A DNA stretch of 64,000 bases, taken from the NCBI GenBank assembly GCA_964630685.1, contig CAZVVW010000002.1, positions 25,559-89,558 on the forward strand. Direction: 5' to 3'. This stretch comes from an uncultured Methanosarcinales archaeon (GTDB taxonomy: Archaea; Nanobdellota; Nanobdellia; Woesearchaeales; BS150m-G63). Numbering within the stretch: the stretch's first letter is position 1; each line of letters starts with the position of its first letter. A program made the position numbers and the translations under genes. Below are positions 10,201 through 43,559 of the stretch, piece by piece. The notes beneath the pieces are model-generated. The model saw nothing but the letters and a program-made list of their open reading frames with translations, did no database searches and was not told where the DNA came from.

Positions 10201-13200
10201 AATGTATGCATTTATACATCCACCATTTTCATATCTTCCTTGTTCATCACAGATATAAACTGTTACATTTTCTCCAAAAGGTTGGTCTGCGTCTGTCCAA
10301 GAGATGCTGAAAGTTACTTCTTCACCCACATTTGTGGGATTTGTAGAATTAGAATCTACCATTACTTCAGTTATATTTGGTGTTGTGCCACTTACTTCAT
10401 AATCATAAATATATCTGGGTTCTGAGAACACTTCTTCTCCATAGTTTGTGTCATCATAAGGAGTTAGTCCACATTTCCAGTAATCTCCTGCTAAAGTTTC
10501 TTCATGAGTTAATATTGAACCTGTTGTTACTGCCCATTCAAAATAACCAGAACCTTGGTCAACATACCACCTGTAGGTGATACTTGTGTTATTAAACATT
10601 TCATTATCACTATCTAAATCAGTTAAATTTGTGTAACTACAATTTAAGGTTTCATTATCTAAAGGATAAATGTCTGCAGGTGTGGAGTTATAAACTGTTA
10701 AGTTAGCACTATCTAAAGTTGGAAGATGATTGATGTAAATATTGTTGTTTTGTGCTAAGGAGTTATAATTATTGCTTCTTTCTGTTGAGTCATAGATGTA
10801 CACATAGTAAGATTGGTTTGTGATGTTATTGTTTAGATTTTCACTATCATAAGTGCAAGTGTATGGTGAAGTGCTTGTAGAGGATAATGTACAGAAAGCA
10901 GTATCAAGACATCCTTCTCTGTTGTGATTGGTTGAGTTACAGATAAATAATTCTACTGTTTCTCCGATATTTGAGTCATACCAGTTTACTGTGAAATTGA
11001 TGTTTGCTTCATATACTAATGGAGCTGTTGAATTAGTGTTTAATGCTACACTTGTTATTTCTGGGGTGATTTCTCCTATAGGTATTTCAGAGGAGATGTT
11101 TTCTGTGCTGTTTACATAACCATCAGATACAATAACTCCACATTTCCATGATTCTCCTTCTGCTGTGTGGTCTGAAGAAAGATTTTGAACTGAAGTGTCT
11201 GCGTCTATATTTTGCCAAGTTCCATTGTTGTATTTATACCAGAAGAAATATTGATCCTCTTCTCCTGCGTAATTGGATGCATTAGTGTTATCACCAGAAA
11301 GATTGAAATCTGCATCTGAGAATGTGTAATTACAATTCAAAGTTTCATTTGTGTTAAAGAAAGTTCCTCCAGAGGAATTTATTATTGAAGTGTTTTGTGC
11401 TGTCGGAACATGGTTTACAGAGAAAGTGCTTACATTTGCAGATGAACATAGGTTTGAATCATCACATATCATTACTGTGAAGTTTACTGTGCCATTATCT
11501 GTTGATTGTACTGTGTATGAAGCGTAAATTGGATTATCTGAAGTGAAATCCACTTCAGTGAAACCTTCATATTCACAACCAGCGTTTTCTATGATGCTGT
11601 CATTTTTACATACATAAGCTTCAACCAATTCTCCAAATGGTTGATCTGCATCTGTCCAATTTATTGCAAATGTCACAACATCTCCGACATTTGTTGGCTC
11701 TGTTGCTGTTGAGCTAGAATCTAGTGAAAGTATTTTTGGAGTTTCATTTACACCATACTGTGTAACTGTAACATTATCTGAGTCTACAGGAACACTGCAA
11801 GTGTAGTTATCACATGTTGTTACTGTACATTTCCATCTTTGACCTAATGATGTTTCTCCACTTACCAGTGTTTCATTGTTGGGATAATCATTTAGAAGTT
11901 GAAATCCTGAACCTTGGTCATAATACCAAGAGTAGTTGTAAGTGAGTGTTGCGTTTTCTGCATCATTTGCTGTGGCGCTACATTCAAGATTATTTGAAGG
12001 CTGAGGTGATGTTGGTGTTAAGTTTACTTCGGTAACTTCTGGTTTTCTGTTTAGATGAATTGTTCCTGTTTCAGTGTCTGAGTTTTCATCTTCATCATAA
12101 ATCCTCATAGTGTAATTGAATTGGGTGGTGTTTGCTGATGCTGTTGTCAATGTTGAGCTGTTGAATTCACAAGTTATAGGATCTGTTGTTGTAAAAGTTG
12201 TTGTGCAGTATTCTGTATTGGAACAGCCAGCAGAAGTTATACTAGAATCATTACAGATGAATAAAGTTACTTGAGCATCATTCCATTGTTCTGGGTCTGA
12301 CCAGTCAACTGTGAAGGTGATGTTTTCATTGAAAGTAATTGGTTCGCTTGAATTTGATCCTTGATATGTTGTTGATTGGATTGTTGGTGCATGACTTTCT
12401 ACAATTCCTTCAGCAGAAACTGCTGTGCTGTTTGCATAACCATCGTTTACTATTACTTCACATTTCCATTCATCTCCGTAAGAAGTGTAATCTGTGCTTA
12501 TTGTTTGTGTACTGAAGTCTTGTTTAACCCATACTCCCTGTACTTTTTTATACCAAGAGAAGTATTGGTCTGATTCAGTGTGGTAATCTGAAGAGTTGTT
12601 TCCTCCACCTGAAACATTATGATCTCCATCATCAAAAGTGTAATTACAACTTAAATCATCTGTTTCATTGATATAAGCACCCCCATTTATACTGACAGTT
12701 TCTGCTGTAGGGATATGATTTACAGAGAAATTGTAAGGTCCTTCAGCAGATGAACAATCATAATTTTCATTACAAACCATTGTGTAATAATTTAGGACGT
12801 GGTTAGTGTTATCTCCATAATCTTCATCTTCTGCTGTGTAGGTTATTGTTAATGGATTGTCTGTTGTCCATCCACTGTAACTGAATTGTTTTGAGCCAGC
12901 AGCACATCCTGTTTGAAGAATGTTTGAGCTGTTACAAATATAAGCCATTGCTGAAGTTGTGTTTGGACTTGCCCAAGATATTATGAAAGTGATATCTTCT
13001 CCAACGTTTGTTGGGTATGTTGCATTAGAATTATCTGTTGCATTTACTACGCTAGTTTCAGTTTCTGTTCCGGTTGATTCTGAAATGGTTATGTCGTCAG
13101 ATGTTTTTGATGTTCCATCTGAATATCCATCATTTGGTATGATTTCACATTTCCATTGATCGCCAAGTTCTGTTGCGCTGAAGCTTAATAAATTTGAAGT

Positions 13201-16200
13201 GTTGGATGTTGGACCATACTGCCAGTAAACTTGCCAATCACCTGAACGTTTTAACCACCATTTGTAAGTGTAAGTCATTGTGTCGTTGTCTGAATCTGTG
13301 GAATCATTAACTGCACATTTTATTGTTGAATCATTAGGAACATAATTTCCTGAGACATATGCTGAATTATTATAATAAGTGATATTTAGACTATTAACAA
13401 TAGGAATATGGTTTACAAAGAAACTATATCCAGATTGGTTTCTACAATCATAATCTGCACTACAGAATAAAAGATTATAATTGATTGGGCCATGACTGTT
13501 TGTTAAGTTGAATACAGGAGTATTTGTTCCTGGTGTAACTACTAATTCATCAACTTTAAAAATTGCTTGAGCTGGATTGTTATAAGTTACTGTTCTATTG
13601 AACTCATACCCCCAACAACCAGAGTTTCTTATGTGGGTATCATTATCACAGACATATAATTTTACATAATCATAAGGACCATCCCAAGTTACATTTACAA
13701 TTATGTCATCGCCTATATTTATGGGTGTAAGAGTTCCCGATTCATTATTAGAATTATCAGATACAGCCGTTATTTCTGGTCCACCACCGGTTTCTGGAAT
13801 GTCTTCACCTAAAGCAGCAGTTACATGGATTTCTGAAGAATTCTTTGATTCCCCATATTCCCATTCATCTATGGGTGTGATTTGACATTTCCATTCATCT
13901 CCTGGCATTGTGTTTCCATGAACTAAGATGTCGTTGTAATCATTATCACACCAAAGGAAATCATCACAAGAACTGAATTCTGTATCGCCGAATGGCTTTA
14001 CAAACCATTCATAAGTGTAATTGATTATTTCATTATAAACAGAATTACCTGTTGTAGCATCCCAGATTATGTCTTCTCCAGAATCATAATTATCATTTTC
14101 ATTTGTATCATGGAAATAACATCCAGTTAAAGAAGTGCCATTTGTTCCGCTACTTACAGATGAGAATTGGAGGATAGTTTTCCAATTTTCACTATTATTA
14201 TATATTAGGGTGTCAATATTATAATCATAATTTGAATCATCATTTACATCAATGTATGCTAGATTTGTATCATTACTGCAAGCCAAGATTGCAGTGCCAT
14301 TTTTTAGGTTTGAATCTTTTTGATTCCTAATATCTGCAAAAGGTGTTTCCCAACCATCTGCATCTATCATAATATCTGAAGTTGTGGTGTTTGTTAAATC
14401 TTGATCGCTTCCAGTTCCTTGAATACATTGGAGATTCCAATCATCATTTATATCTGAAGTGTATGTTAAACCTTCATTATAACTAAGATGATTTGTCCCT
14501 ATATTAACCCAGTTTAGTTTGGCTGCGTGGTTGACTGTGAAGTTGCCGTCTCTCCAGATTGAACATGCTCCACCAACATCACAGATTCTCATGTGGTATA
14601 TTACTTCACTATCATCTACATCTTCTGCTGTATAAGTACATGATTGTTGTTTGTCTGGGCTGTAGTCTGTTTCACAATAGGTTTTAGCCCCTGGACAGCT
14701 ACCAGTATCTGAACCAGAAGCTTTATAATTTATCCTTATATTTGCTTGATCATAATGAGGTCCTCCATCTGATGAGGTGTTATCATAAATAATTGAAGCA
14801 GAACCGGTTTCATGTGCAGCTACTTTTACTGAAGAATCATTATAAGGAATTTCTCCTGAAAGTAAACAGTTATCTAAGTATCCTGAATCTGCTACTTTTC
14901 CTGTTATTCCAAAAATTGTTCTAAATGCTTTACCTACCCAATTTATTAAATCCATTAGCCAGTTTCCTGTTGGTTGTATTCTTGCTGTAGCATAACCTAC
15001 TCCACCCATTTCCATGTCTTCTGAAAAAGCAGGGTCATTTGGATCTGCTATACAGAATTTTAGTGATGTGTATTTATCTGGCAATGGTTGGGCATTATAT
15101 TGCATAGTGAATGTTGTCCATTCTCCAACAGTAAAGGTGTTCCAGTCACTTCTTGCTATTCTCATTTCTGTTGAGCCATAATAATCTGGTACATGAGAAG
15201 TTGGAGAGTCAGTCATTGAAGTGTTGTCTGCTTCGTAAGCTATTATTGAAAATATGAAAGGGGTGTTATATCCTGAGGTGCTGTTTGTTATTCCATCAAT
15301 TATTGCTTGCCTTATTTTGATATCTACTGTGTCTATCATTAATCCTGTTTCATTTGTGTAAACATGAGCAAAATTTCCATCACCTCCAAAGGTGATGTTT
15401 TGGGCACAATAAGTGTCGTTATCACAGCTATAATCCTCTATACCTCCTGTTTTGTCACACACCACCATCATTGCTGATTCACCAACATCTGTGTCTAACC
15501 AATGTGAATCAAAGGTTACATCTTCTCCAACGTTTGTTGGATTGGTAGAGTTAGAATCATCTTCATAATCTATTAATTGAGGAATTGAGTTTCCCCCTAT
15601 TATTGTAACAGAAGAATTTTCATATTCATAATAAGTTGATCCATTAAGCCAAGTCCAATTTCTACTTGTGGAATTAAACCAAACTCTTTCATTATAACAA
15701 AGAGGATTACTCACCCAACTCTCATCATAATCACATACACTTATTGCACATTTTATTTTATCGTTTTGATCAAAATAATTATCTAATGTTGGATTAGTTT
15801 CATCTGGAACTTCAACAAAACTATTTATCCCTTCATTGTTAATGTACCATTTGTATGCTGTTGATTTATCATTAACTGAACCATATTCACTTTCAGTATC
15901 TAGATCAATATCATTAAATGTGAAATTACAAGTTAAGGTGTCATTTCCTAATGGATCTGTTGGAGTGACTTCTGCATTTGAAGCATAAGGTGCTGTGTTG
16001 TTTATTGCATACCATCGCGTGTCGCTGTTTTCTCCACTAGATATTTCAGGTCCATCTTCTTTCCCATCATTAGGAACCATTGCACAAGTGATTTTATCTC
16101 CTTTGAAAGTATGAGAATAACTTAACATAGCAGTACATTCCCAAAGATCTGGATTATCTACTATCCCTTCTTCACAATAGATATCATTTAAATTAGGATA

Positions 16201-17511
16201 CTGTGGAATAGTGTCGTTTGGACCTATTGGGCCCAGATTAATACATGTAGCATCCATATTTTCTTCTACATAATTTGTTCCGCCAGAGAATGTTGCAACT
16301 GTAAAAGTATATTTGGCAGTTATTTCATCATTATTTCCATCACACACAAAACCAGTACAATAGATATCATGAGCTGTTTGTGCGTGTCCTTTTAAGGGAT
16401 CGAGATAAATAGTATCATTTGCAAAATAGGGTTCTGCATTAAATGCTGCTGTTACTATTGCAGAATCATCTGATTCTTGGGTGCCGTCCCATGCAGTTAT
16501 GTAGAAATAGAATAAGGTTGTGTTATAATAGCTAGAGACATTCCAAGGTAGAGATGAACTTCCTAGGATGCCAGTAGTAGTAACGTTTCTGAATGATATA
16601 TAGGCTGGTGATGTGTAGTTCCAATGGGTGTTTTCAGAGACAATATTAGTATAATTCATTCCTGATTCTGCTGTTGCAGCGTAGATATAATAGCCTAAAA
16701 CATCATCTGTATCTCCTCCTGCTACACTAGTATCATCACCTACATTAGGTTCATCAGCAGATCTTGTCCAATTAATATCAATTCCTAATTCTCCTTGGTC
16801 ATCTAGATGGTCTGCTGCGTTAACATTTGTTGGAGGATCTGGTGCGTTATTATCTATAGTGGTTGCATTTATACAACTAGATTCGTTTTCATTACCTGAA
16901 GCGTCAACTGAAGTGACTTTAAAACCATAAGTGGTATTTACTTCCAGATTTTCCCAAGTAAAAGAAGAGATTCCTGCAGATACTGAATCATTATAGTTGT
17001 TATTTGTACATGATCCATTAGGGTGCAATTTTATCAAGTAATGGTCTATATAATTTATTCCTTGTCCATCATCTGAAGGTAAAGTCCAGTGTAAATCAAT
17101 TGCAGTTCCTTGATCATTTTCTGTATCTTCTGCATATAATCCTATTACTTCTTGAGGGGTTGTGTTATCTGAAGCAGTTGCATTCCCACTATCCGTATCT
17201 ATTAAACCATTTGTACTGTTATAAGAACTTACAGTGAAGGTATGTTCATTTGTATCTCCTGCAGTATACATATAATCCAGAGTCATACCATTTAGTACTT
17301 GTATACCGTCAATGTATAATTGATAACTTACTGCATTTGTATCATTTGTCCATTCTGCTTTTATTTGCAATTCGTTGTTTTCTTGGTTTTCTAATGTCAG
17401 ATCAGTTGCATTTACAGAATTAGTTAATAATATTAAAAATAAAGCCACAGCTATTAAGAAAACATAACTTTTAAGATTTACTTTCTCCTCTTTTTTTAGT
17501 GCTTTGTTCAT
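1288..17511 (-). CDS. Giant (5,407 aa) secreted, membrane-anchored surface protein; probably an adhesin or S-layer-like glycoprotein
   Basis: Uninterrupted 16.2 kb ORF. N-terminal signal peptide (KSYVFLIAVALFLILLTNSVNA). Extremely N/T/S/D-rich with a very high density of N-x-S/T sequons. About seven tandem ~220-aa repeats (PTNVGE.VTF..W ... WKC....DGY.NST). Five Cys-rich DCGGPC repeats. A single TM helix (IIPLNLIPYLIAIIVVLVAIIGFVL) followed by a ~200-aa charged cytoplasmic tail. Confidence 0.85.
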   Translation of the reverse strand: MNKALKKEEKVNLKSYVFLIAVALFLILLTNSVNATDLTLENQENNELQIKAEWTNDTNAVSYQLYIDGIQVLNGMTLDYMYTAGDTNEHTFTVSSYNSTNGLIDTDSGNATASDNTTPQEVIGLYAEDTENDQGTAIDLHWTLPSDDGQGINYIDHYLIKLHPNGSCTNNNYNDSVSAGISSFTWENLEVNTTYGFKVTSVDASGNENESSCINATTIDNNAPDPPTNVNAADHLDDQGELGIDINWTRSADEPNVGDDTSVAGGDTDDVLGYYIYAATAESGMNYTNIVSENTHWNYTSPAYISFRNVTTTGILGSSSLPWNVSSYYNTTLFYFYITAWDGTQESDDSAIVTAAFNAEPYFANDTIYLDPLKGHAQTAHDIYCTGFVCDGNNDEITAKYTFTVATFSGGTNYVEENMDATCINLGPIGPNDTIPQYPNLNDIYCEEGIVDNPDLWECTAMLSYSHTFKGDKITCAMVPNDGKEDGPEISSGENSDTRWYAINNTAPYASNAEVTPTDPLGNDTLTCNFTFNDIDLDTESEYGSVNDKSTAYKWYINNEGINSFVEVPDETNPTLDNYFDQNDKIKCAISVCDYDESWVSNPLCYNERVWFNSTSRNWTWLNGSTYYEYENSSVTIIGGNSIPQLIDYEDDSNSTNPTNVGEDVTFDSHWLDTDVGESAMMVVCDKTGGIEDYSCDNDTYCAQNITFGGDGNFAHVYTNETGLMIDTVDIKIRQAIIDGITNSTSGYNTPFIFSIIAYEADNTSMTDSPTSHVPDYYGSTEMRIARSDWNTFTVGEWTTFTMQYNAQPLPDKYTSLKFCIADPNDPAFSEDMEMGGVGYATARIQPTGNWLMDLINWVGKAFRTIFGITGKVADSGYLDNCLLSGEIPYNDSSVKVAAHETGSASIIYDNTSSDGGPHYDQANIRINYKASGSDTGSCPGAKTYCETDYSPDKQQSCTYTAEDVDDSEVIYHMRICDVGGACSIWRDGNFTVNHAAKLNWVNIGTNHLSYNEGLTYTSDINDDWNLQCIQGTGSDQDLTNTTTSDIMIDADGWETPFADIRNQKDSNLKNGTAILACSNDTNLAYIDVNDDSNYDYNIDTLIYNNSENWKTILQFSSVSSGTNGTSLTGCYFHDTNENDNYDSGEDIIWDATTGNSVYNEIINYTYEWFVKPFGDTEFSSCDDFLWCDNDYNDILVHGNTMPGDEWKCQITPIDEWEYGESKNSSEIHVTAALGEDIPETGGGPEITAVSDNSNNESGTLTPINIGDDIIVNVTWDGPYDYVKLYVCDNDTHIRNSGCWGYEFNRTVTYNNPAQAIFKVDELVVTPGTNTPVFNLTNSHGPINYNLLFCSADYDCRNQSGYSFFVNHIPIVNSLNITYYNNSAYVSGNYVPNDSTIKCAVNDSTDSDNDTMTYTYKWWLKRSGDWQVYWQYGPTSNTSNLLSFSATELGDQWKCEIIPNDGYSDGTSKTSDDITISESTGTETETSVVNATDNSNATYPTNVGEDITFIISWASPNTTSAMAYICNSSNILQTGCAAGSKQFSYSGWTTDNPLTITYTAEDEDYGDNTNHVLNYYTMVCNENYDCSSAEGPYNFSVNHIPTAETVSINGGAYINETDDLSCNYTFDDGDHNVSGGGNNSSDYHTESDQYFSWYKKVQGVWVKQDFSTQTISTDYTSYGDEWKCEVIVNDGYANSTAVSAEGIVESHAPTIQSTTYQGSNSSEPITFNENITFTVDWSDPEQWNDAQVTLFICNDSSITSAGCSNTEYCTTTFTTTDPITCEFNSSTLTTASANTTQFNYTMRIYDEDENSDTETGTIHLNRKPEVTEVNLTPTSPQPSNNLECSATANDAENATLTYNYSWYYDQGSGFQLLNDYPNNETLVSGETSLGQRWKCTVTTCDNYTCSVPVDSDNVTVTQYGVNETPKILSLDSSSTATEPTNVGDVVTFAINWTDADQPFGELVEAYVCKNDSIIENAGCEYEGFTEVDFTSDNPIYASYTVQSTDNGTVNFTVMICDDSNLCSSANVSTFSVNHVPTAQNTSIINSSGGTFFNTNETLNCNYTFSDADFNLSGDNTNASNYAGEEDQYFFWYKYNNGTWQNIDADTSVQNLSSDHTAEGESWKCGVIVSDGYVNSTENISSEIPIGEITPEITSVALNTNSTAPLVYEANINFTVNWYDSNIGETVELFICNSTNHNREGCLDTAFCTLSSTSTSPYTCTYDSENLNNNITNQSYYVYIYDSTERSNNYNSLAQNNNIYINHLPTLDSANLTVYNSTPADIYPLDNETLNCSYTNLTDLDSDNEMFNNTSITYRWYVDQGSGYFEWAVTTGSILTHEETLAGDYWKCGLTPYDDTNYGEEVFSEPRYIYDYEVSGTTPNITEVMVDSNSTNPTNVGEEVTFSISWTDADQPFGENVTVYICDEQGRYENGGCINAYIQAYAQTTNPITLTYTTTETDLSTSNYSIQIVDSDGQVSNYDNDSFAVNHKPNATTPLTIQIDEETLHCNFTYHESTFTTDRNDSEITNAQSDIYSFFEWYEYLNSNWTQLSETSRNLTMAFTGGEVIRCRVLVGDQWELTDTDFKNASNTTVIPAPTTPTLWPLDALNNNNAQITGYLPEDNVNNITIQAYAWQGYANPKDNSTTTLSTSTLKGTSAVIDTFETNSSFVVINNANHTHFNTTNYIEFANHDKEDFLRYQITEHQEIIPDESYRINISPVLNQTVPTGTIVYAYNSSEPQGWFNFTLNLHADDNTIKARAIKTIEGGYNLTGDWTSAEETFSDNENPAIGINDIPNYETSTTPTISFNLTDNYGINLPTLLLNITGTQNKTHVTSDTSYNTTEWSNLGDNISCTPTSSTNYDCQVVLNLTSGTYNLTFNINDSAENTFSTTKSNYWINSSPAPSEEFTVVRTTPEFNNTNLTFNVSIPQNISSNGTLQYTIGTAVYPNTGWNSITGWRNLTSFGTDEDYISYSNISSSWTNLSLYTNEDENLTLTPHTIYVANVRYQIYNWSLWSDVKTTQAMKYFPPYDVGTGPTAVNVTAPLYSFSPTIPISWTGSSDDKYDISYYVIAAGTAEYNESGWNDTQAQWLNAGNTLTHSLEFEANELTHQASYYFTIAAVNTIGKMSTPISSFGTTYYDQTPPTIEINSVANDTDSSDGWLDTNEDDITLINITADENSTCYYSLYDQDYADRDSTKGDKYCNATTEIIGINLTCNITDEDDEPLTQGNHTYYIICQDDREIPNEQSRDENTEINFTVNWPDEPVVDNLTIDIAIYTSSANERNLTNPAYALTNDVLFCNYISSDLDGNGTVDDSLTQYKWYIDGTEITGQTTDYLDLSVNGSAGDNIICEVNITDTTGLSSGFIQSNHSNFNSTVYINNSIPTTATQIAPINNTWHTDSIDFDWTDSTDADEDGINYTLYIYNSSEILESSNETSDSNITINLTDYSDNNYTWYIKSCDNSSFTNNCTESINLTFKVDQTSPTIDITSPTEDQSVGILVEFWANITDTLNQVVDYPTYEILNSSNETIASGFLISLNNQYYASWIPTGFTSGNYSIVITANDSLGNSGNSTRNFALDLLAPYIVVDPDEWEFRAQWLNNNSNLIMDSFVNSTNTTFGSPLNYSVNLSYNIYKTGTIIKTNSTENTSETFWWNHSIPLNTPDWTDGRYDVVFNVTDTLNNTVLLETWFVVDKTAPEYANQKITTSSNSSTVYNDDNVTLSIDWLNNMFIWDANENNIDKDRTTIIWTYNTSNSDVHQEMNLSSETLEFLDDTFFGTIPENETNKTETIYWKSISYDLAGNMRDTSNSSTNETYWFSFTVASETPVFNSTIADISWPEDTDYTNLTLSDYFSDADDNLTHTYTMYPKGLLLYDSLNNLTEIIDFNNGSYENINQENGINNNSILIQSEIENLLLNGDFNESTEDAEHVTTPQDWVRHSYPVYTHNAPPEYVTVNEHNYYSQLITVTENTNYTLSQYMATNSTQGNGRLHINWFNELYPTDETTNKTISYLGSTLDCESSQNCSGIIAITSTPDINESTSRRILTLTSPQESAYAQIVIDSDSNSTWVKIDKVQFEQKEYASTFLAEHRLPGKLTYPITSQYNVTRNNFNKEEGTIEMFIKPTWNGSETLNEDAVFFDIRLDEAIEDATPAVLTSGESPYIFTITANATPSEITGTAQEPFSVTPENNLFKVNISGEYSEINLSENPLIRIVLIQNLALTNLPSTIEAGTITTFTNLDDATYNISFTGPENLSTEDLSYGESFTHLFPTAGVYNYSFTLHPEVNGTFTVTEKTDYRNLTAEDVKTLLDMNLDNEIVNVSTSTNNSIKLETIETGSTKFIQILNGTANELLGFTNQIYTGADATTDNTLLEITISGDSYNISFSAGNLTVDKVVETINTEIPGLATADNTTFNLTTTTDGSSATIFIGDESANDVLGFTSNETEEGIDAVDDLFWLGRKDNKFVFGIREREDKAEINITNLNNQEWTFVAARWDEDTISLTINNEITTDNRTTSEELADIDNTTFNDLTIYIGSNGAQTEQANAYIDELAIYDYARSDTDLLNDYNNNSTIYLNGTYTTDGEINTTINESDSNNVTTTFSPFTDWFGYQRIRFFVNDSFTKIASNLLNLYVTPVNDAPRKVFGNETIENQSWWMDNSHTLDLSNYFHDIEDDELTYYEIYLTANYKIKASINGSIVTFTQPTGWNGEEKISFNVTDGEYWNSSNNIALNVYLNRIYNTTIDETDYNDSYGSDGTDLTTIYLAEIYDSTIYKEDTNLTTINESFINLSTIDESIIINDSTVFNSTINDSTLIRTTVLNSDIIHVTLTDTYVDGAFIDPSNVTNSNVTGSSRIIDSNVTDSNINNSNVTNSEIDNSDLYYSSVDLSTISNLILRYANVTNDFLNSGAVYNSDDEELWNTTNNGTTPLANITNYPPIITYFSLTESESQNNTYILSFRYNDSNLNYSFPDNITWTINWGEGTTSEGTNSSNPSESFTDSNTYSSSGNYTVTLTITDLYEQTVTQSETITITISSGTTQPSGGGGGNGLSGSTVMETIETCTDGIKNQDEMGIDCGGVCAACPGPTCYDGIKNQNEAGVDCGGPCYTACSTATCSDNIKNQGEEGVDCGGPCSACTVRATCSDNIQNQGEEGVDCGGPCSKCTTCSDYIQNQGEEGVDCGGPCSKCPKVEQPLFGIIPLNLIPYLIAIIVVLVAIIGFVLRGKLLPPKRPEIKPAEIKPTLIPVEGPAPITEQKPIKESKQEIKPAETKPKLKPVEQPSEEDKFKDLKKYVSTRLANGFNKNHIKQTLIIKGWPEEVLDVALDGSKELKDTLSTVENYINSSYAEGYNLEEIRQSLLEQGWSEGITDLLLFNVHKPHQDTKQLKAYINYKLSQGKTADEVKQLLQSVGWGKEVIDSVI
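1987..2364 (-). repeat. Five tandem ~27-aa Cys-rich repeats (C.D.I.NQ.E.GVDCGGPC..C) within the giant protein, membrane-proximal
   Basis: The DNA-level direct repeats (aaggtccaccacaatctaccccttcttccccttg...) are visible. The protein repeats are CSDNIQNQGEEGVDCGGPCSKC and variants. Confidence 0.8.
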
Positions 17512-17814: not shown

Positions 17815-17818
17815 TTTT

Positions 17819-17942
17819 TTTCTGATTTTCAGAATTTTAATCTGAAAATCATATATATTTTTCTGATATTCAGAATTTTATCTGAAATTCAGATTTCAAA
17901 TTCCCATTTTAGGAATTTTTTTCTGATATTCAGAATTAATCT
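17819..17942. promoter_or_regulatory. Array of at least five TTCTGA-N3-TCAGAA / ATCTGAAA-TCAGA palindromes (candidate AbrB operators) upstream of the AbrB-giant protein operon
   Basis: ttctgattttcagaa, atctgaaaatca, ttctgatattcagaa, atctgaaattcaga, ttctgatattcagaa. Same family as at 1205..1285. Confidence 0.55.
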
Positions 17943-18097: not shown

Positions 18098-18204
18098 GGG
18101 CCTGTAGCCTAGCCTGGGCAAAAAGAATCATAAATTCTTTTAGGGGCAAATAAGGCGACAGCCTTCTAAGCTGTAGATCGAGGGTTCAAATCCCTCCAGG
18201 CCCG
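18098..18204 (+). tRNA. tRNA-Arg (anticodon TCT) with a ~33-nt intron inside the D-loop
   Basis: GGGCCTG acceptor; D-stem GCCT/AGGC with a D-loop AGCCTGG[intron]TA; anticodon arm ACAGC-CTTCTAA-GCTGT; T-arm GAGGG-TTCAAAT-CCCTC; 3' acceptor CAGGCCC plus discriminator G. Confidence 0.8.
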
Positions 18205-18250
18205 TTTATTTTTTTATTGATTTTATTTTTAATTTTTTATAAGAATTCTT

Positions 18251-40360: not shown

Positions 40361-41845
40361 TTATTTAATTGATTCTAAACCTAATTTTTTTAGTGATTCT
40401 AATAATCCTTCTTCATTTTCCTTTTGAGATACGCTTGCTAATAAAGCTAAATTTTTTCTTAAACCAATGTTAGTTCCTTCAGGAGTTTCTACTGGTCCAA
40501 GTCTTCCTGCACAAGTACAATGAAGTTCTCTTGCTTCAAAATTTTCTTGCGTTGCTTCTAATGGAGAAACTACTCTTTGTAAATGTGATAATGTATCAAT
40601 AAAATTAATTCTCGCCATTCTTTGACTTATTCCTTTTCTTCCTCCAACCCAAGATCCTGTTGCCATTGAAGAATAAATTCTTGATGTAAGAAGTTTATCT
40701 CTTATTATTACTTTGATGGAGGGGAATTTTCCCCTTTTTACAATTCTTTGGAAATTATAAAGTAAATCCCCAATTAATACTTTAAGATTTACCCTGAATA
40801 AATCTGCTAGTAAATCTCCGCTTAGTTTTAATCTTTTATTCATATAATGGTCTTTATAATCCAAATCTAATTTTCCAGAGGATACTAAGATATATTTTTT
40901 TAATAATTTACATAAATTATATGCTTTGTAAATTCTATCTTCTTTTTTAGTTCCTAAATGGGGTAAAAGATATCTATCTAAGATTTCTCTTGCCCTTTCT
41001 ATTCTAATTTCTTTAGGTTGGGCAATTGGGATTTTTTTTGCTATGAAATCTAAAGCATCGTCTTCAGTTTTAATGTTTGTAAATTCGTAAAGATTTACGA
41101 GAACTTCATCAAGATCTCCATCTTTAGAAATAAATCCAATTATTTCTTCATCTTTTAGTAAACCAAGAGCTTTGATGATCACAGCTATGGGAACTTTTTT
41201 GACTCTAGTGAATGTCAAATAAAATAAATTATCTTTTAATTTTTCAATTGTATGGGGTATTTTAAAAGAACCATGTTCTGAAAATAATTTTCCACTATAT
41301 TTAGAAACCCCTAATTTATTTTTACTAACAAGAAGCTTATTTGATGCTAAATCTTCAATGTTTACAAGAACTTTTTCAGTTCCATTTACTATAAAATATC
41401 CCCCAGGATCATCTGGATCTTCACCTTTTTCAATTAATTGTTTTCTATCTAAATTGTAAATGTTACAATACTTGCTTTTTAACATGATAGGTAATGTACC
41501 AATTTGACTTTCAAAACTATCTCTTTGAACTCCATTTACATATGTACTTACATCAATATGTAATGGAGCAGAATAAGTTAATTTTCTTAATCTTGCTTCA
41601 ATAGGGTAAATTTCTCTTTTTGAACCATCTGCCTCAGTTATTGTGGGTTTTCCAACCCAAATTTTATTAAATCTTATTTTATATTCATCAACGTTTTGAG
41701 GAATTATTGTTGGTTCTATTTCTTTATTTTCTTCAATAATTGTTTGTAATTCTTCTTCAATAAATTGATTAAAAGATTCTATGTTAGATTCTACAAATCC
41801 TTGTTCTTCAAAATATTTGCTAATTATCGTTTTAGTTTTAATCAT
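40361..41845 (-). CDS. rpoB2: DNA-directed RNA polymerase subunit B'' (N-terminal part of split RpoB)
   Basis: RpoB N-terminal protrusion/lobe homology; it ends where B' begins 1 nt downstream. Confidence 0.85.
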   Translation of the reverse strand: MIKTKTIISKYFEEQGFVESNIESFNQFIEEELQTIIEENKEIEPTIIPQNVDEYKIRFNKIWVGKPTITEADGSKREIYPIEARLRKLTYSAPLHIDVSTYVNGVQRDSFESQIGTLPIMLKSKYCNIYNLDRKQLIEKGEDPDDPGGYFIVNGTEKVLVNIEDLASNKLLVSKNKLGVSKYSGKLFSEHGSFKIPHTIEKLKDNLFYLTFTRVKKVPIAVIIKALGLLKDEEIIGFISKDGDLDEVLVNLYEFTNIKTEDDALDFIAKKIPIAQPKEIRIERAREILDRYLLPHLGTKKEDRIYKAYNLCKLLKKYILVSSGKLDLDYKDHYMNKRLKLSGDLLADLFRVNLKVLIGDLLYNFQRIVKRGKFPSIKVIIRDKLLTSRIYSSMATGSWVGGRKGISQRMARINFIDTLSHLQRVVSPLEATQENFEARELHCTCAGRLGPVETPEGTNIGLRKNLALLASVSQKENEEGLLESLKKLGLESIK

Positions 41846-42080
41846 TTACAACAACCCTATAAAAATAAGAAGTACCTGCAGATTGACTCGCTCTAGTTAT
41901 TTTTATAATATCTCCTTCTTTAGTTTTAAGATTTTCTATTGATGTGTCTTTTATTGATATTCTGGGTAAATTTCCTGTAGAAGCATTGTATTTTTTTAAT
42001 AATTTTTCTTTTTCTTTTTCATTTAATTTAGTATGAATTGGAACGAGAACGTGTTTTGATGTGTCAAAGTTTTTTTTCAT
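41838..42080 (-). CDS. rpoH: DNA-directed RNA polymerase subunit H
   Basis: 80 aa with a HVLVPIH...L motif; first gene of the rpoH-B-A operon. Confidence 0.8.
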   Translation of the reverse strand: MKKNFDTSKHVLVPIHTKLNEKEKEKLLKKYNASTGNLPRISIKDTSIENLKTKEGDIIKITRASQSAGTSYFYRVVVND

Positions 42081-42157
42081 TTTAGGTAGTGGTCTGACAA
42101 TGTTTTTTTGTTGTCTTTATATGTTTTTTGGTTTAGTGATGAATTTTGGATTATAAC

Positions 42158-42274
42158 TACAGTTTCGGCTGGGGTTTGCAAAATTTGTTTTGCTAATCCT
42201 TGAAGACGAAGTCTTCTTGAGCTACCGATAAGCGATATAAATCAATTGCGTTGATTTAATCCCTTTACATACCC
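42158..42274. repeat. Repeat copy A (ctacagtttcggctg ... agcgatataaatcaa-N5-ttgatttaatcccttt ... ttgattaatt) in the rpoH operon leader
   Basis: Shares roughly 60 nt of near-identical flanks with copy B at 42769..42874. Contains the TTTATAT box and the GAAGAC hairpin. Confidence 0.7.
42198..42221 (-). promoter_or_regulatory. Conserved hairpin motif CAAGAAGAC-TTC-GTCTTCAAGG (UUCG-type tetraloop), ~120 nt upstream of rpoH (copy 1 of 3)
   Basis: Read on the minus strand: CTCAAGAAGACTTCGTCTTCAAGGATT. Confidence 0.5.
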
Positions 42275-42331
42275 ATTGATTAATTACTTTTTTTTAAAAG
42301 TAATCGTGTTTTGTTTGTTTTTGATTATAAA

Positions 42332-42460
42332 TGGGCCGGACGAGATTTGAACTCGCGACCACTTGATTTCTTGATGTCATATTGCTTGACACTTAAAAGT
42401 CAAGTGCTCTATTGCCCACATTTGGCAATTAAATGCTGTTCCAGGCTGAGCTACCGGCCC
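42332..42460 (-). tRNA. tRNA-Lys (anticodon TTT) with two introns: ~29 nt in the D-loop and ~26 nt in the anticodon loop
   Basis: Minus-strand parse: GGGCCGG-TA-GCTC-AGCCTGG[AACAGCATTTAATTGCCAAATGTGGGCAA]TA-GAGC-A-CTTGA-CTTTTA[intron]A-TCAAG-TGGTC-GCGAG-TTCAAAT-CTCGT-CCGGCCC-A. Confidence 0.75.
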
Positions 42461-42463
42461 AAA

Positions 42464-42584
42464 CGCCCTGGCCGGGACTTTCAATCCTTAGCCATTTGGG
42501 TTAACAAAGGCTAAATAAGGCTTTTTGAACCCGGGTCGAAGCCTCGACAGGGCTTCATGATAGGCCGAACTACACTACCAGGGC
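42464..42584 (-). tRNA. tRNA-Asp (anticodon GTC) with a ~46-nt intron inside the T-loop
   Basis: Minus-strand parse: GCCCTGG-TA-GTGTAGTTCGGCCTATCA-anticodon arm AAGCC-CTGTCGA-GGCTT-T-stem CCGGG-TTCAAA[intron]T-CCCGG-CCAGGGC-G. It lies 3 nt upstream of tRNA-Lys. Confidence 0.75.
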
Positions 42585-42768
42585 ATTGTCTCAATGCAAC
42601 CAGAATAATCCTCTTTTGGCTCATAGGAGCGTTTTTAGACCTTAAATTTTGTCTAGAAGGATTATTTAGGCATGCGGTATTGAAATCTTTAAGGGTTTAT
42701 AAAGCTATCGTAAATAAATAGAGAATAAGGAAAAAACAAAGAAAAACAAGAAAAAAGAAATAAAAGAA

Positions 42769-42874
42769 TCCCCGCTGCCGGATTGGAGACCTACAGTTTC
42801 GGCTGAATAGGCTTCGAGAAGCGATATAAATCAACATAGTTGATTTAATCCCTTTGTACTCTTTTTGATTAATT
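42769..42874. repeat. Repeat copy B carrying an exact 16-nt duplicate of the tRNA-Tyr 3' end (tccccgctgccggatt)
   Basis: 42769..42784 is identical to 42898..42913. The remainder matches copy A's flanks, including the TTTATATCGCTT box and the taaatcaa-N5-ttgattta hairpin. Confidence 0.7.
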
Positions 42875-42897
42875 GCTTTGATTGAAAAGAAAAATGA

Positions 42898-43019
42898 TCC
42901 CCGCTGCCGGATTTGAACCAGCAACCTTTCGGTTACGGCTGATTGTTTTTCATTCTTAGCGGATATGCATAGTCCAACAATCTCTACAGCCGAACGCTCT
43001 ACCGTTGAGCTAAGCGGGG
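42898..43019 (-). tRNA. tRNA-Tyr (anticodon GTA) with a ~50-nt intron at the canonical 37/38 position
   Basis: Minus-strand parse: CCCCGCT-TA-GCTC-AACGGTA-GAGC-G-TTCGG-CTGTAG[intron]A-CCGAA-AGGTT-GCTGG-TTCAAAT-CCGGC-AGCGGGG-A. Confidence 0.75.
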
Positions 43020-43046
43020 ATAAGATTGGAGAAAAGGGCTTTACTT

Positions 43047-43559
43047 TTAAATATTTCTGATTTTATTGAATATTAGTTTAACAGATTCTTCTGGATTAAG
43101 TTTATTAGAATCTATAGTTATCAAAGGATTTTCTTCTTTTTTATATGGAGCATTGATTCCTGGAAGAGATATTTCACCTTGCTTTGCCCTGAGATATAGA
43201 TTATGGATTCCTGGCTCATTGATTCTCTTGTTCTCTCTTTCTTCACAAATTTTTATCGGACAATCTATCTGAATCACAAAAAAATCTCGAATTAGTTCTT
43301 TTGCTTTTTTTCTACCTACCTGCAGATTATCTGTTGCATCAATGATTATATTCTGCTCTTGGGATAGTTCTGCTGCCTTTTTTGCTAATTTAGTGTAAAC
43401 AAAAATTCTTTCTTGTTCATCATATTTTGGCTCTGAAACTATTTCTTTTCTGAATTTGTCGAGGTGAAGAACTTGAGCATTTATTTTTTCAGCTAAAAAT
43501 TTTGCAATCGTACTTTTTCCAGAACCGGGGAGCCCAGTTATCCAAATTGCGAAGAACAT
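43047..43559 (-). CDS. Adenylyl-sulfate (APS) kinase-like P-loop kinase
   Basis: IWITGLPGSGKST P-loop. The C-terminal ICEEREN...LYLRAKQGEISLPGINAPYKKEENPLITID is co-linear with the CysC ICEARD..GLYKKARAGEL.NFTGID. Confidence 0.55.
   Translation of the reverse strand: MFFAIWITGLPGSGKSTIAKFLAEKINAQVLHLDKFRKEIVSEPKYDEQERIFVYTKLAKKAAELSQEQNIIIDATDNLQVGRKKAKELIRDFFVIQIDCPIKICEERENKRINEPGIHNLYLRAKQGEISLPGINAPYKKEENPLITIDSNKLNPEESVKLIFNKIRNI

Follow-up and report, generated by a model that had tools for sequence, protein, structure and literature searches.

Repeat copies bracketing a tRNA-Asp/tRNA-Lys pair as probable members of a small family of non-coding insertion elements in a marine Woesearchaeota lineage

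Why should two copies of a repeat bracket the tRNA-Asp and tRNA-Lys genes in front of an RNA polymerase operon, and why should one of them be followed by an exact duplicate of the end of a third tRNA gene? For this locus, which lies within a 64,000-nucleotide stretch of DNA that was analysed as a whole (the window), the original prediction offered two readings, namely the scar or att-like site of a past integration, or a promoter cassette duplicated ahead of each of two transcription units. We found that both copies are lineage-specific insertions, and because a duplicated stretch of the insertion site stands on either side of each copy, we read them as the footprint of small mobile DNA and not as a shared promoter or the scar of a virus. 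Our preferred explanation, to which we assign a probability of roughly 0.62, is that one marine Woesearchaeota lineage harbours a small family of non-coding, non-autonomous insertion elements, of which copies A and B are members.

Every gene at the locus, like both repeat copies, is on the minus strand. Read in that direction, tRNA-Tyr(GTA) (42898..43019) is followed by copy B, tRNA-Asp(GTC) (42464..42586), tRNA-Lys(TTT) (42332..42460), copy A, and rpoH (41838..42080; Pfam RNA_pol_Rpb5_C, E = 2e-24), the first gene of an operon comprising rpoH, rpoB'', rpoB', rpoA', and rpoA''. Default ARAGORN reported zero tRNAs in the window and, with introns permitted, misplaced the introns and called Leu and Asn; the assignments were settled by taking positions from Rfam and running ARAGORN on sequences from which the introns had been removed manually, which returned tRNA-Tyr, tRNA-Asp, and tRNA-Lys, respectively. 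The tRNA-Tyr gene (Rfam tRNA, 56.9 bits) has a 50-nt intron at the canonical 37/38 position and, by direct reading of the sequence, C1-G72 and A73. The tRNA-Lys gene (Rfam, 50.4 bits) has introns in its D-loop and anticodon loop, and the tRNA-Asp gene, with an intron in the T-loop and a weak Rfam match of 18 bits, is kept in 80 related loci. The same arrangement was found again in independent assemblies (L001, L002, and L005-L007), identical or one base off over the 967-nt spacer, and a 10-kb extension of the window (L103/L104) contained no further tRNA or repeat copy.

The predicted presence of two repeat copies around the tRNA-Asp/tRNA-Lys pair was borne out. Copy A spans 42157..42317 and copy B 42785..42896, and the blocks that they share, AAAGGGATTAAATCAA-N5-TTGATTTATATCGCT (42231-42266 and 42820-42855; chance expectation 0) and CAGCCGAAACTGTAG (42157-42171 and 42791-42805), each occur exactly twice, both times on the minus strand. 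The core contains a palindrome, P1 (GATTAAATCAAC-NNN-GTTGATTTATATC; 42235-42259 in copy A and 42824-42848 in copy B), with arms of 8-12 bp. The stable hairpin of the original prediction can be recognized in this palindrome, but the TTTATAT box that was listed beside it is not a separate element, being the right arm of P1. Copy B further contains the segment ATCGCTTCTCGAAGCC, a second palindrome with a TT bulge (P2; 42790-42811), and a short T-arm-like spacer, GTCTCC. Alignment of the two copies leaves an insert of ~45-48 nt that is present only in copy A, where a 48-nt nested insert with two hairpins (42172-42219) splits P2 and leaves CAGCCGAAACTGTAG at 42157-42171.

Across the family, members are mosaic, non-coding units of ~110-160 nt without an ORF inside the module, in which a variable left part is followed by P1, a short linker, an optional nested hairpin pair, and the invariant right terminus CAGCCGAAACTGTAG, which is retained even when the 5' arm of its hairpin has been destroyed, as in copy A. 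Copy A runs from the terminus CAAACAAAAC to the terminus CTGTAG, and its ends match those of a copy at a DUF1003 gene in the sister species (L095/L096); CAAACAAAAY and CTGTAG are both common to copy A and the L095 copy. Because left ends vary among copies, the description of the termini as defined rests on these two copies. The ends do not form terminal inverted repeats, since inverting CAAACAAAAY does not give CCGAAACTGTAG, and the palindromes are internal.

Both copies lie between the arms of a direct repeat drawn from the insertion site. At copy B, the 16-mer AATCCGGCAGCGGGGA is found at the 3' end of tRNA-Tyr (42898-42913) and again at 42769-42784, where 0.04 occurrences would be expected. 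The exact 16-nt duplicate that had been predicted is thus present, and the identity extends to 17 nt: the upstream arm (DR1-B, 42897/8-42913) comprises the last 16-17 nt of tRNA-Tyr, and the downstream arm (DR2-B, 42768..42784) is an exact 17-nt copy that contains the T-loop AAT, the 3' strands of the T-stem and acceptor stem, A73, and one further base. The 16-mers, given as 110 bp apart, are separated by 113 nt (129 nt start to start). After DR2-B comes a T-rich trailer resembling the native trailer of tRNA-Tyr, and in the counterpart from the sister lineage (L091; ATCTGCAGCAGGGATTCATTTTTCTT versus ATCCGGCAGCGGGGATTCATTTTTCTT) the repeat covers ~27 nt of tRNA end plus trailer. At copy A, the duplication consists of 13 nt of the tRNA-Lys trailer, with the upstream arm TTTATAATCAAAAA (DR1-A, 42318..42331) directly after the tRNA-Lys 3' end and the downstream arm TTATAATCCAAAA (DR2-A, 42144..42156); TTATAATC(C)AAAA thus stands on each side of copy A, versus one copy in L091, where the empty site reads CCCATTTCATAATACCC. 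When copy A and one arm are taken out, the remaining spacer aligns with the L091 empty site, apart from a few indels and substitutions. As the target is duplicated, the interrupted gene end would therefore be restored upstream of the element and a useless second copy left downstream.

Comparison with relatives showed the same Tyr-Asp-Lys-rpoH layout together with insertion polymorphism, which the original prediction had proposed to look for. The closest reference genome (L011; RpoB'' 84% identical) has tRNA-Tyr, the promoter, tRNA-Asp, tRNA-Lys, and rpoH with neither copy, and L091 has copy B and a single-copy empty site at the position of copy A, so that, as for an integrative element, presence and absence alternate over intact empty sites. 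BLAST returned no match to copy A or B in 80 related loci. Copy B is 86-91% identical to the copies in L091 and L092. The window and L091 share 89% identity in the module core, compared with 57-61% in the flanking spacers and 68% in the junction and leftover tRNA fragment; this conservation of the core could stem from use by the host rather than from a need of mobility.

A role in transcription was the other half of the original prediction, in which copy A was the rpoH leader and the repeat a promoter cassette placed before two transcription units. The first claim is incorrect and the second found no support in the form proposed, since the native promoters are separate from the repeat and remain conserved where relatives have no copy of it. 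The rpoH TATA box ACATATAAAGAC (42113..42124, minus strand) lies downstream of copy A, ~35-45 nt upstream of the rpoH ATG, and has the same sequence and position in L091 without copy A. Likewise, the TATA box TTTATAAA of the tRNA-Asp/tRNA-Lys unit (42696..42703, minus strand) is outside the repeat in a promoter block that is 89-92% identical in L091 and L011, and the leader of tRNA-Asp (~90 nt) is 93% identical in L091. From archaeal promoters, transcription starts some 25-30 nt downstream of the TATA box. The TATA-like boxes of the repeat lie ~115 nt (copy A) and ~125 nt (copy B) upstream of these separate native boxes, and in copy B T5-T6 runs occur within about 60 nt downstream of the box. 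Oligo-T runs terminate archaeal transcription, and the T-rich run between copy B and the tRNA-Asp promoter (42727..42767; T6, T5, and T6 on the minus strand) is likely to stop any transcript begun in copy B. Judged from sequence, the TATA-like box may fire but does not serve as the promoter of the neighbouring genes.

More elaborate host functions can be built on the same features. Copies of a regulatory cassette (either a small-RNA gene or a promoter that includes an operator palindrome) might have been duplicated before highly expressed units, namely tRNA-Asp/tRNA-Lys, the rpoH operon, and tRNA-Cys, with the tRNA-end copy incidental. Such a cassette would account for a TTTATAT box equal to the TATA boxes of the genome's tRNA and rpoH promoters, for the orientation of all copies along their downstream genes, and for a core conserved at 89%, which is like real promoters (92%) and far above the spacers. 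We nevertheless consider it improbable: besides the native tRNA-Asp and rpoH promoters downstream, conserved in relatives without the cassette, and the T5-T6 runs between copy B and the next promoter, the start site predicted from tRNA-promoter spacing falls in P2 or the nested inserts, so that no conserved RNA product would result. The predicted copy B RNA also folds no better than shuffled sequences (z = +1.1), Rfam returned no family here, and the TATA-like box amounts to no more than an arm of a palindrome, mirrored in the opposite arm.

Several RNA-based and other identities for the repeat were considered and rejected. A split-tRNA 3' half gene of the Nanoarchaeum type has its own promoter, a leader complementary to the trailer of the 5' half, tRNA positions 38-73, and an intact T-arm; copy B is joined to only 16 nt of tRNA sequence without the 5' strand of the T-stem, and an intact tRNA-Tyr adjoins it. 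Neither such a half nor a tRNA-like minihelix fits copy B, which lacks a T-arm and any complement to the acceptor strand and has a fold z-score of +1.1. Minihelix-like hairpins do exist in other lineages (L047 and L063/65/68). The derivation of CAGCCGAAACTGTAG from a decayed piece of tRNA-Tyr (intron end plus anticodon loop) was unsupported by local alignment against shuffles (p = 0.04-0.66). For a C/D-box sRNA, reading revealed no convincing C and D boxes, and 41800-43200 matched no Rfam family at E up to 10. A DGR template/variable repeat pair was discarded because the identical repeats show no adenine-specific differences, the vicinity contains no reverse transcriptase, and tRNA ends would make implausible targets. 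In an SSV-type arrangement, the module promoter would read into an integrase N-terminal fragment, for which there is no start codon and no ORF.

The repeat is not confined to this locus. In the window's species, family members follow tRNA-Tyr, tRNA-Lys, and tRNA-Phe (L098:19451), and in the sister species they follow tRNA-Tyr, DUF1003, and tRNA-Cys. All three copies in ~95 kb of the window's species lie within ~100 nt downstream of a tRNA gene, and no others were found there; a generic element upstream of many genes, the outcome that would have made the repeat an ordinary promoter, does not match this placement. Copy number differs within the sister species, with two tandem units in L092 versus one in L095/L096 and, at tRNA-Cys, one unit versus at least three. 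The nested hairpin pair (49-52 nt) is 85% identical between L095 and L098, and copy A has a different nested insert at that position.

Target duplications differ from site to site. They measure 13 nt at copy A, 17-27 nt at copy B, 19 nt at tRNA-Cys, and 47 nt, with one mismatch, at the DUF1003 ORF end, and the tRNA-Phe copy has no clear duplication (about 0-5 nt). Because this length is so variable, no single known transposase fits, and because the duplicated sequences (tRNA-Tyr end, tRNA-Lys trailer, DUF1003 ORF end, and tRNA-Cys end) differ and share no att core, a single site-specific integrase is argued against. The DUF1003 site of the window's species itself has an unrelated 49-nt filler between perfect 72-nt repeats. 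When we scanned 80 related Woesearchaeota loci and the window for T-arm-like motifs, an exact copy of at least 13 nt of the tRNA 3' end occurred 70-860 nt downstream on the same strand for 10 of 211 motifs; the reverse-complement control gave 0 and the upstream control 1 match, a spurious one. A ParE-toxin cassette lies in one of these inserts (L078).

We next turn to what could have moved these units. The ~45 ORFs of the 64-kb window and the genes called on neighbouring contigs contained no integrase, transposase, Cas1, or viral domain, and no recombinase was found there. The window, related loci, viral contigs, phages, and plasmids yielded no autonomous element that shares the ends of the repeat: scans of viral contigs gave only two chance matches, one to a GC-rich phage and one to a coding region, and BLAST against phages and plasmids gave nothing. 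The idea of an integration footprint nevertheless holds in the main, given the polymorphism seen with L011 and L091 and a duplication that runs into the trailer. The locus is no classical scar of an integrase or a prophage, however, because the DNA between the repeats is ~112 nt long and itself a dispersed repeat, other sites have differing duplications, and the window contains no integrase or viral gene.

Under the preferred reading of a small family of insertion elements, the units would land at or just after gene 3' ends, almost always beside tRNA genes, and insert with a direct target duplication of 13 to ~47 nt, the 16-17-nt tRNA-Tyr fragment after copy B being the probable leftover duplicate. 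The insertion of copy B would predate the split from the sister lineage, or else the same site would have been hit twice, and copy A would have been inserted later, directly behind tRNA-Lys. We infer that a recombinase with its gene elsewhere mobilizes the elements in trans, and the conserved right terminus and the palindromes may serve as its recognition sites. As to the agent, we give about equal odds to an enzyme of the tyrosine-integrase type that uses att-like gene ends and to a transposase or host repair process that produces long duplications, staggered or templated. A bolder version, which we regard as rather doubtful, is that Woesearchaeota harbour an undescribed class of tiny non-coding elements that home to the 3' flanks of tRNA and other genes with long variable duplications (13-70 nt) and are neither classical integrase nor classical transposase elements. 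One such mechanism might be an insertion, primed by a hairpin or templated, at the ends of heavily transcribed genes; the window repeat would be one active family, and the hairpin-plus-tRNA-end inserts at about 5% of relatives' tRNA genes would be other families, some with toxin cassettes.

Two further histories compete with this reading. A large integrative element (a virus or plasmid) could have entered tRNA-Tyr via a tyrosine integrase and then lost nearly all of its DNA, so that copy B would be attL/attR plus a remnant of one arm, and the other copies would derive from related elements at other att sites, in the manner of 'cis-mobilizable elements' whose decay has spared nothing but the att sites. 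The duplications do begin in the T-loop or the 3' strand of the T-stem and continue beyond the end of the gene, the customary layout of integrase identity blocks, and the sequence that leads into the second repeat imitates a T-arm (window, GGTCTCC|AATCC; L092, GGTTCCC|AATCC). Tandem arrays resemble site-specific accretion (CIME definition in PMC5704250), inserts of 0.5-0.85 kb with small ORFs occur at tRNA-Asp in L078 (ParE toxin) and L068, kb-scale tRNA-fragment scars are well known in archaea (PMC9897764), and a common right end with differing left ends would be expected if deletions ran inward from attL. This history is unlikely, however, given near-identical modules at four or more targets: as the duplicated sequences at those targets are unrelated, several integrase specificities would be required in a very small genome. 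Moreover, neither an integrase or fragment of one in the sequence examined nor a full-length element with these ends was found, copy A does not have the tRNA-Tyr fragment expected from a B-type attP, and independent deletions should not leave co-linear remnants of ~100 nt with the same left terminus (copy A and L095).

Host repair or replication might alternatively have produced the inserts with no dedicated mobile element at all: where gene ends are heavily transcribed, repair of breaks or stalled forks by template switching would duplicate the gene end, the junction would be filled with captured or fold-back-templated DNA, and the module would be a frequently captured filler. Highly variable duplication lengths (13-72 nt), the unrelated 49-nt filler between perfect 72-nt repeats at the DUF1003 site, and the inverted copy of the start of the duplicated segment in several fillers (L047, z = -4.5; L063/65/68) all speak for such an origin. 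We judge it very improbable, in that random capture would not predict a module of at least 100 nt with a conserved terminus at several sites in two species, and copies A and B have no inverted copy of the duplicated segment.

Mobile DNA is little described in DPANN archaea, whose genomes are very compact, and we found no description of small repeat families of this kind in these archaea in the literature searched. Here, the spacer before an RNA polymerase operon has recently taken up insertions, and tRNA 3' flanks are preferred landing sites. In the annotation of metagenome-assembled genomes, the orphan tRNA ends left behind could pass for split-tRNA halves, for tRNA fragments, or for the borders of a prophage, and differences in presence and copy number offer strain-level markers. 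If a new insertion mechanism makes the long variable duplications, the family would be a tractable way into that mechanism; if a trans-acting integrase is responsible, the window elements would be the smallest att-bounded passengers in archaea known to us.

Among known systems, MITEs have terminal inverted repeats and a short, fixed-length target duplication, and REP/BIME elements have no duplication. The window family resembles MITEs, Correia, BOX, and REP/BIME elements in being short, non-coding, multi-copy (three copies in ~95 kb, and three sites with up to 2-3 tandem units in the sister species), and hairpin-rich, a mosaic of exchangeable sub-modules (P1, P2, nested hairpin pairs, and alternative left modules) that lies between genes at their 3' ends with possible promoter-like boxes and nested insertions. 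It differs from them in having no inverted termini, in duplications that are long and of no fixed length, and in a strong preference for tRNA 3' flanks; unlike REP/BIME elements, most copies have duplications, and the window ORFs contain no RAYT or other transposase domain. Casposons (Cas1-solo transposons) insert at tRNA ends, as in Aciduliprofundum boonei, where the target is the 3' end of tRNA-Pro and the duplication is 15 bp (PMC5137440). The target directly at the tRNA 3' end, with the T-loop region upstream and a duplication overlapping or adjoining the tRNA end, is shared, the 13-nt and 16-17-nt duplications of copies A and B are near casposon size, and tandem insertion is possible in both. 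Casposons, however, are large and have terminal inverted repeats, Cas1, and PolB, all of which the window elements lack, and family duplications of 27-47 nt fall outside a 15-bp ruler; with no inverted termini, variable duplications, and no Cas1 in the window, only the target position at a tRNA 3' end is casposon-like. Integration of archaeal viruses, plasmids, and islands leaves tRNA-gene fragments, as with PYG1 in Pyrococcus yayanosii (reviewed in PMC9897764). Like those scars, the copy B locus has inserted DNA flanked by a direct repeat of a tRNA 3' end, one arm in the intact gene and one orphan downstream, that begins in the T-loop or T-stem and is polymorphic among relatives. Archaeal integrase elements are 9-23 kb and encode their integrase, whereas the insert here is ~112 nt of non-coding dispersed repeat with no integrase in or beside it and no recombinase domain in the window ORFs, and other sites have different duplications, including the end of a protein-coding gene. 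CIMEs are decayed integrative elements that retain attL and attR without an integrase (PMC5704250), and they share with the window family integrase-less DNA within att-like direct repeats at gene 3' ends and tandem 'accretion' arrays; they are kb-sized bacterial islands with one att site and a known ICE family, whereas in the family described here the targets differ between copies.

Every gene around copies A (42157-42317) and B (42785-42896) is encoded on the minus strand. Followed in the direction of transcription, the locus reads kinase-like gene (43559-43047), tRNA-Tyr (43019-42898), copy B, a T-rich run, a TATA box, a leader of ~90 nt, tRNA-Asp (42586-42464), tRNA-Lys (42460-42332), copy A, a second TATA box, and rpoH (42080-41838), followed by rpoB'', rpoB', and rpoA. 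The repeat is real and far above chance: the pattern AAAGGGATTAAATCAA-N5-TTGATTTATATCGCT, with 31 specified bases, was found exactly twice (0 expected), and the 15-mer CAGCCGAAACTGTAG likewise has exactly two occurrences. The suspected duplicate of the tRNA-Tyr end is also present: the 16-mer AATCCGGCAGCGGGGA, located at the tRNA 3' end, recurs 129 nt downstream (0.04 expected), with identity reaching 17 nt. On the coding strand, the module opens with a left arm, followed by palindrome P1 (GATTAAATCAAC-NNN-GTTGATTTATATC), in which the TTTATAT box forms the right arm, then by the linker ATCGCTTATCG(A/G)(A/T)AGC and by palindrome P2 (CCTACAG-CCGAAA-CTGTAGG). Relatives have a perfect P2; that of copy B has a TT bulge, and that of copy A is interrupted by a 48-nt insert of two hairpins. 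In the A/B alignment, copy A is longer by an extra 45-48 nt.

The source is a marine Woesearchaeote (DPANN; window GC content 31.6%), for which several independent marine metagenome assemblies hold identical or near-identical contigs. The nearest reference loci are from Woesearchaeota/Nanoarchaeota MAGs, the best being L011, with an RpoB'' identity of 84%. Elsewhere in the window, a (TAA)n microsatellite beside a methyltransferase gene (about 233-281; about 10725-10790 in L103/L104, contigs of the window's species) shows a 27-nt difference between two assemblies of one population. A giant ORF of 5407 aa (1288-17511, minus strand) contains five tandem repeats of 72-81 nt (1983-2366) encoding repeated protein modules, and arrays of the palindrome TTCTGA-N4-TCAGAA lie at both of its ends (1205-1305 and 17815-17936), one upstream and one at the 3' end; these look like repeated sites bound by a dimeric regulator.

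Introns interrupt all four tRNA genes of the window, not always at the canonical position: two in tRNA-Lys (D-loop and anticodon loop), one in the T-loop of tRNA-Asp, one in the D-loop of tRNA-Arg(TCT) (18099-18206), and one at the canonical site of tRNA-Tyr. Because of these introns, ARAGORN with default settings found no tRNA in the window; Rfam found two of the Tyr, Asp, and Lys tRNAs outright and tRNA-Asp weakly, and manual splicing yielded the calls Tyr(GTA), Asp(GTC), and Lys(TTT), with Arg(TCT) elsewhere in the window. Default tRNA finders overlook or mis-call them. The anticodon-loop intron of tRNA-Lys is present in L011 and missing in the sister-lineage contig L091, and is therefore polymorphic by gain or loss.

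Comparison with related loci established that copies A and B are both insertions. In L011, tRNA-Tyr, the tRNA-Asp promoter and leader, tRNA-Asp, tRNA-Lys, and rpoH are all conserved and both copies are absent, leaving ~50 nt between tRNA-Tyr and the Asp promoter and ~40 nt between tRNA-Lys and rpoH. By BLAST, neither copy matched any of 80 related loci, though the tRNAs matched well. A metagenome scan with the module pattern recovered two sister-lineage contigs: L091, which shares the window's synteny and has a copy-B-like module behind tRNA-Tyr and an empty site behind tRNA-Lys, and L092, in which the module is located elsewhere. When copy A and one TTATAATC(C)AAAA were deleted in silico, the remaining spacer aligned to that of L091 apart from a few indels and substitutions; copy A is therefore a simple insertion directly behind tRNA-Lys that duplicated 13 nt or more of its target. 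For copy B, the L091 duplication starts in the T-loop, spans the tRNA end, and extends into the trailer (ATCCGGCAGCGGGGATTCATTTTTCTT versus ATCTGCAGCAGGGATTCATTTTTCTT), so that the 16-mer of the original prediction is a piece of a longer target duplication. The junction and tRNA fragment are 68% identical between window and L091; the downstream duplicate is decaying in L091, and its tRNA part is still perfect in the window.

Further members occupy other sites. Using the CysRS gene of L092 as a handle, we obtained the corresponding locus of the sister species (L095, L096) and of the window's species in the same samples (L098-L102). In the sister species, the module lies behind a DUF1003 gene, within a 47-nt duplication of the ORF end that includes the stop codon and with no tRNA sequence in its flanks. 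L092 has two tandem units at this site; L095 and L096 have a single unit with a nested 49-nt hairpin pair where copy A holds a different nested insert. The termini CAAACAAAAY and CTGTAG are common to copy A and the DUF1003-site copy. Downstream of tRNA-Cys in the sister species is a relative whose similarity to the module is confined to the right 40 nt (ATATCGGTAGCTACAACCGAAAAGGTAGG), with 19 nt of the tRNA-Cys end duplicated in its flanks; this unit of ~110 nt, tRNA-Cys end plus hairpin insert, occurs once in L092 (481-620) and L096 (5850-5975) and as a tandem array of at least three in L095 (5580-5990). All three are assemblies of one species, the third array being broken by an assembly gap. 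The tRNA-Cys of the window's species has no module-type element, and a third member was found behind its tRNA-Phe (L098), built from a tRNA-Cys-type left part, a nested hairpin pair 85% identical to that of L095, and CAGCCGAAACTGTA; no clear duplication was found in its flanks. The ~95 kb examined of the window's species (window, L098, and L103) contain three copies, each just behind a tRNA gene, and none in any other position. The family has inserted at multiple sites with target duplication, is polymorphic within and between species, and prefers tRNA flanks.

The proposal that the repeat is a promoter cassette for the neighboring genes is not supported, since these have separate, native TATA boxes downstream of copy B (42696-42703, minus strand, serving tRNA-Asp/Lys) and copy A (42113-42124, minus strand, serving rpoH), conserved in L091 and/or L011 in the absence of the copies; T6/T5/T6 runs lie between copy B and the next promoter. 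The TATA box of this genome's tRNA promoters begins ~34 nt ahead of the mature 5' end, a spacing that would start a module transcript inside P2 or, in copy A and L095, in the nested inserts, from which we infer that the module yields no conserved RNA product. The putative RNA of copy B folded no better than shuffled sequence (z = +1.1), and Rfam found no family in the module. Between window and L091, identity is 89% in the module core, 92% in the tRNA-Asp promoter, and 93% in the leader, against 57-61% in the surrounding spacers. The right terminus, the best-kept piece across all copies, is retained in copy A despite the loss of its hairpin partner, which points to a sequence-specific site rather than merely a hairpin. 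Such conservation fits recognition sites of a mobile element, and would fit host use too. The leader itself (window 42587-42695, minus strand) is partly conserved in L011, contains the stem AATAATCCTTCT / AGAGGATTATT, and had no Rfam match; it may correspond to a processed leader RNA or to a small RNA transcribed together with the tRNAs.

Duplication of a gene 3' end around a small insert is common in Woesearchaeota, as indicated by a scan for tRNA ends and by the DUF1003 site. The scan covered 211 T-arm-like motifs from the window and the related loci. For 10 of them, an exact repeat of the tRNA 3' end, 13 nt or longer, lay 70-860 nt downstream on the same strand; controls gave no match on the reverse complement and one spurious match upstream. 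The inserts are unrelated in sequence from lineage to lineage, and most are hairpin-rich and 50-200 nt long, with a hairpin ending 4-7 nt ahead of the orphan (downstream) tRNA end. Some hold an inverted copy of the tRNA end, forming a long hairpin that resembles an acceptor/T-stem minihelix, with the duplicated tRNA 3' end as 3' arm and a near-complement as 5' arm. These lie behind tRNA-Lys and upstream of rpoH in L047 (5440-5525; z = -4.5) and in three groundwater lineages, L063 (5590-5690), L065 (5541-5635), and L068 (5474-5562), among which the hairpin is conserved in a three-species alignment. The orphan copy in the latter three follows the acceptor-stem changes of its own species, which implies independent insertions or concerted evolution. 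Larger inserts with small ORFs lie directly behind tRNA-Asp in L078 (1-600; ~0.5 kb) and L068 (2297-3195; ~0.85 kb), bordered by tRNA end plus trailer repeats of 26 nt and ~32 nt, respectively; the former encodes a ParE-family toxin (Pfam, 25.9 bits) and a small upstream ORF, and the two small ORFs of the latter had no Pfam match. At the DUF1003 site of the window's species (L098:9630-9822), a 49-nt insert unrelated to the module lies within perfect 72-nt repeats of the gene 3' end and holds GTGTCTTC, the inverted counterpart of GAAGACAT, with which the duplicated segment begins. Within this pattern, the window's repeat represents one family, recurrent and conserved.

As for the agent, the integration footprint originally predicted is essentially right, but the inserted entity is a tiny, repeated stretch of non-coding DNA rather than a virus or island. 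A scar of the classical prophage or integrase type is unlikely: the window ORFs encode housekeeping functions (RNA polymerase, ribosomal proteins, topoisomerase VI, gyrase B, aminoacyl-tRNA synthetases, FtsZ, EF-2, and others), and a search of them gave no integrase, transposase, Cas1, or viral domain; the inserted DNA of copy B is only ~112 nt; the flanking duplications of related copies are unrelated to one another; and no module relatives were found in viral contigs, phages, or plasmids. The elements would have been moved in trans, for which two routes seem about equally likely. An integrase-like site-specific recombinase may work on att-like gene ends, as suggested by the position and length of the repeats, which start in the T-loop or T-stem and extend past the gene end, by T-arm mimicry in the bases just before the orphan copy (GGTCTCC|AATCC, GGTTCCC|AATCC), and by the tandem arrays; the many different targets weaken this case. 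Alternatively, the duplication may be made at insertion, by a transposase with long staggered cuts or by repair-linked templated insertion. This route is supported by one and the same element having site-specific duplications and shared termini, and by the fold-back-like fillers of the relatives; it is weakened by the lack of inverted termini and the variable duplication length.

The main points of note are the DPANN host, the targeting of tRNA flanks, and the unusually long target duplications of variable length. Casposons, with a 15-bp duplication at tRNA-Pro (PMC5137440), offer the closest precedent for a duplication that adjoins a tRNA 3' end, although casposon-defining features are absent from the module. 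On the integrase side, the nearest precedents are CIMEs, which are decayed att-only elements (PMC5704250), and the archaeal tRNA scars of kb scale (PMC9897764). In kind, the module belongs with known small non-autonomous insertion elements and att-bounded remnants.
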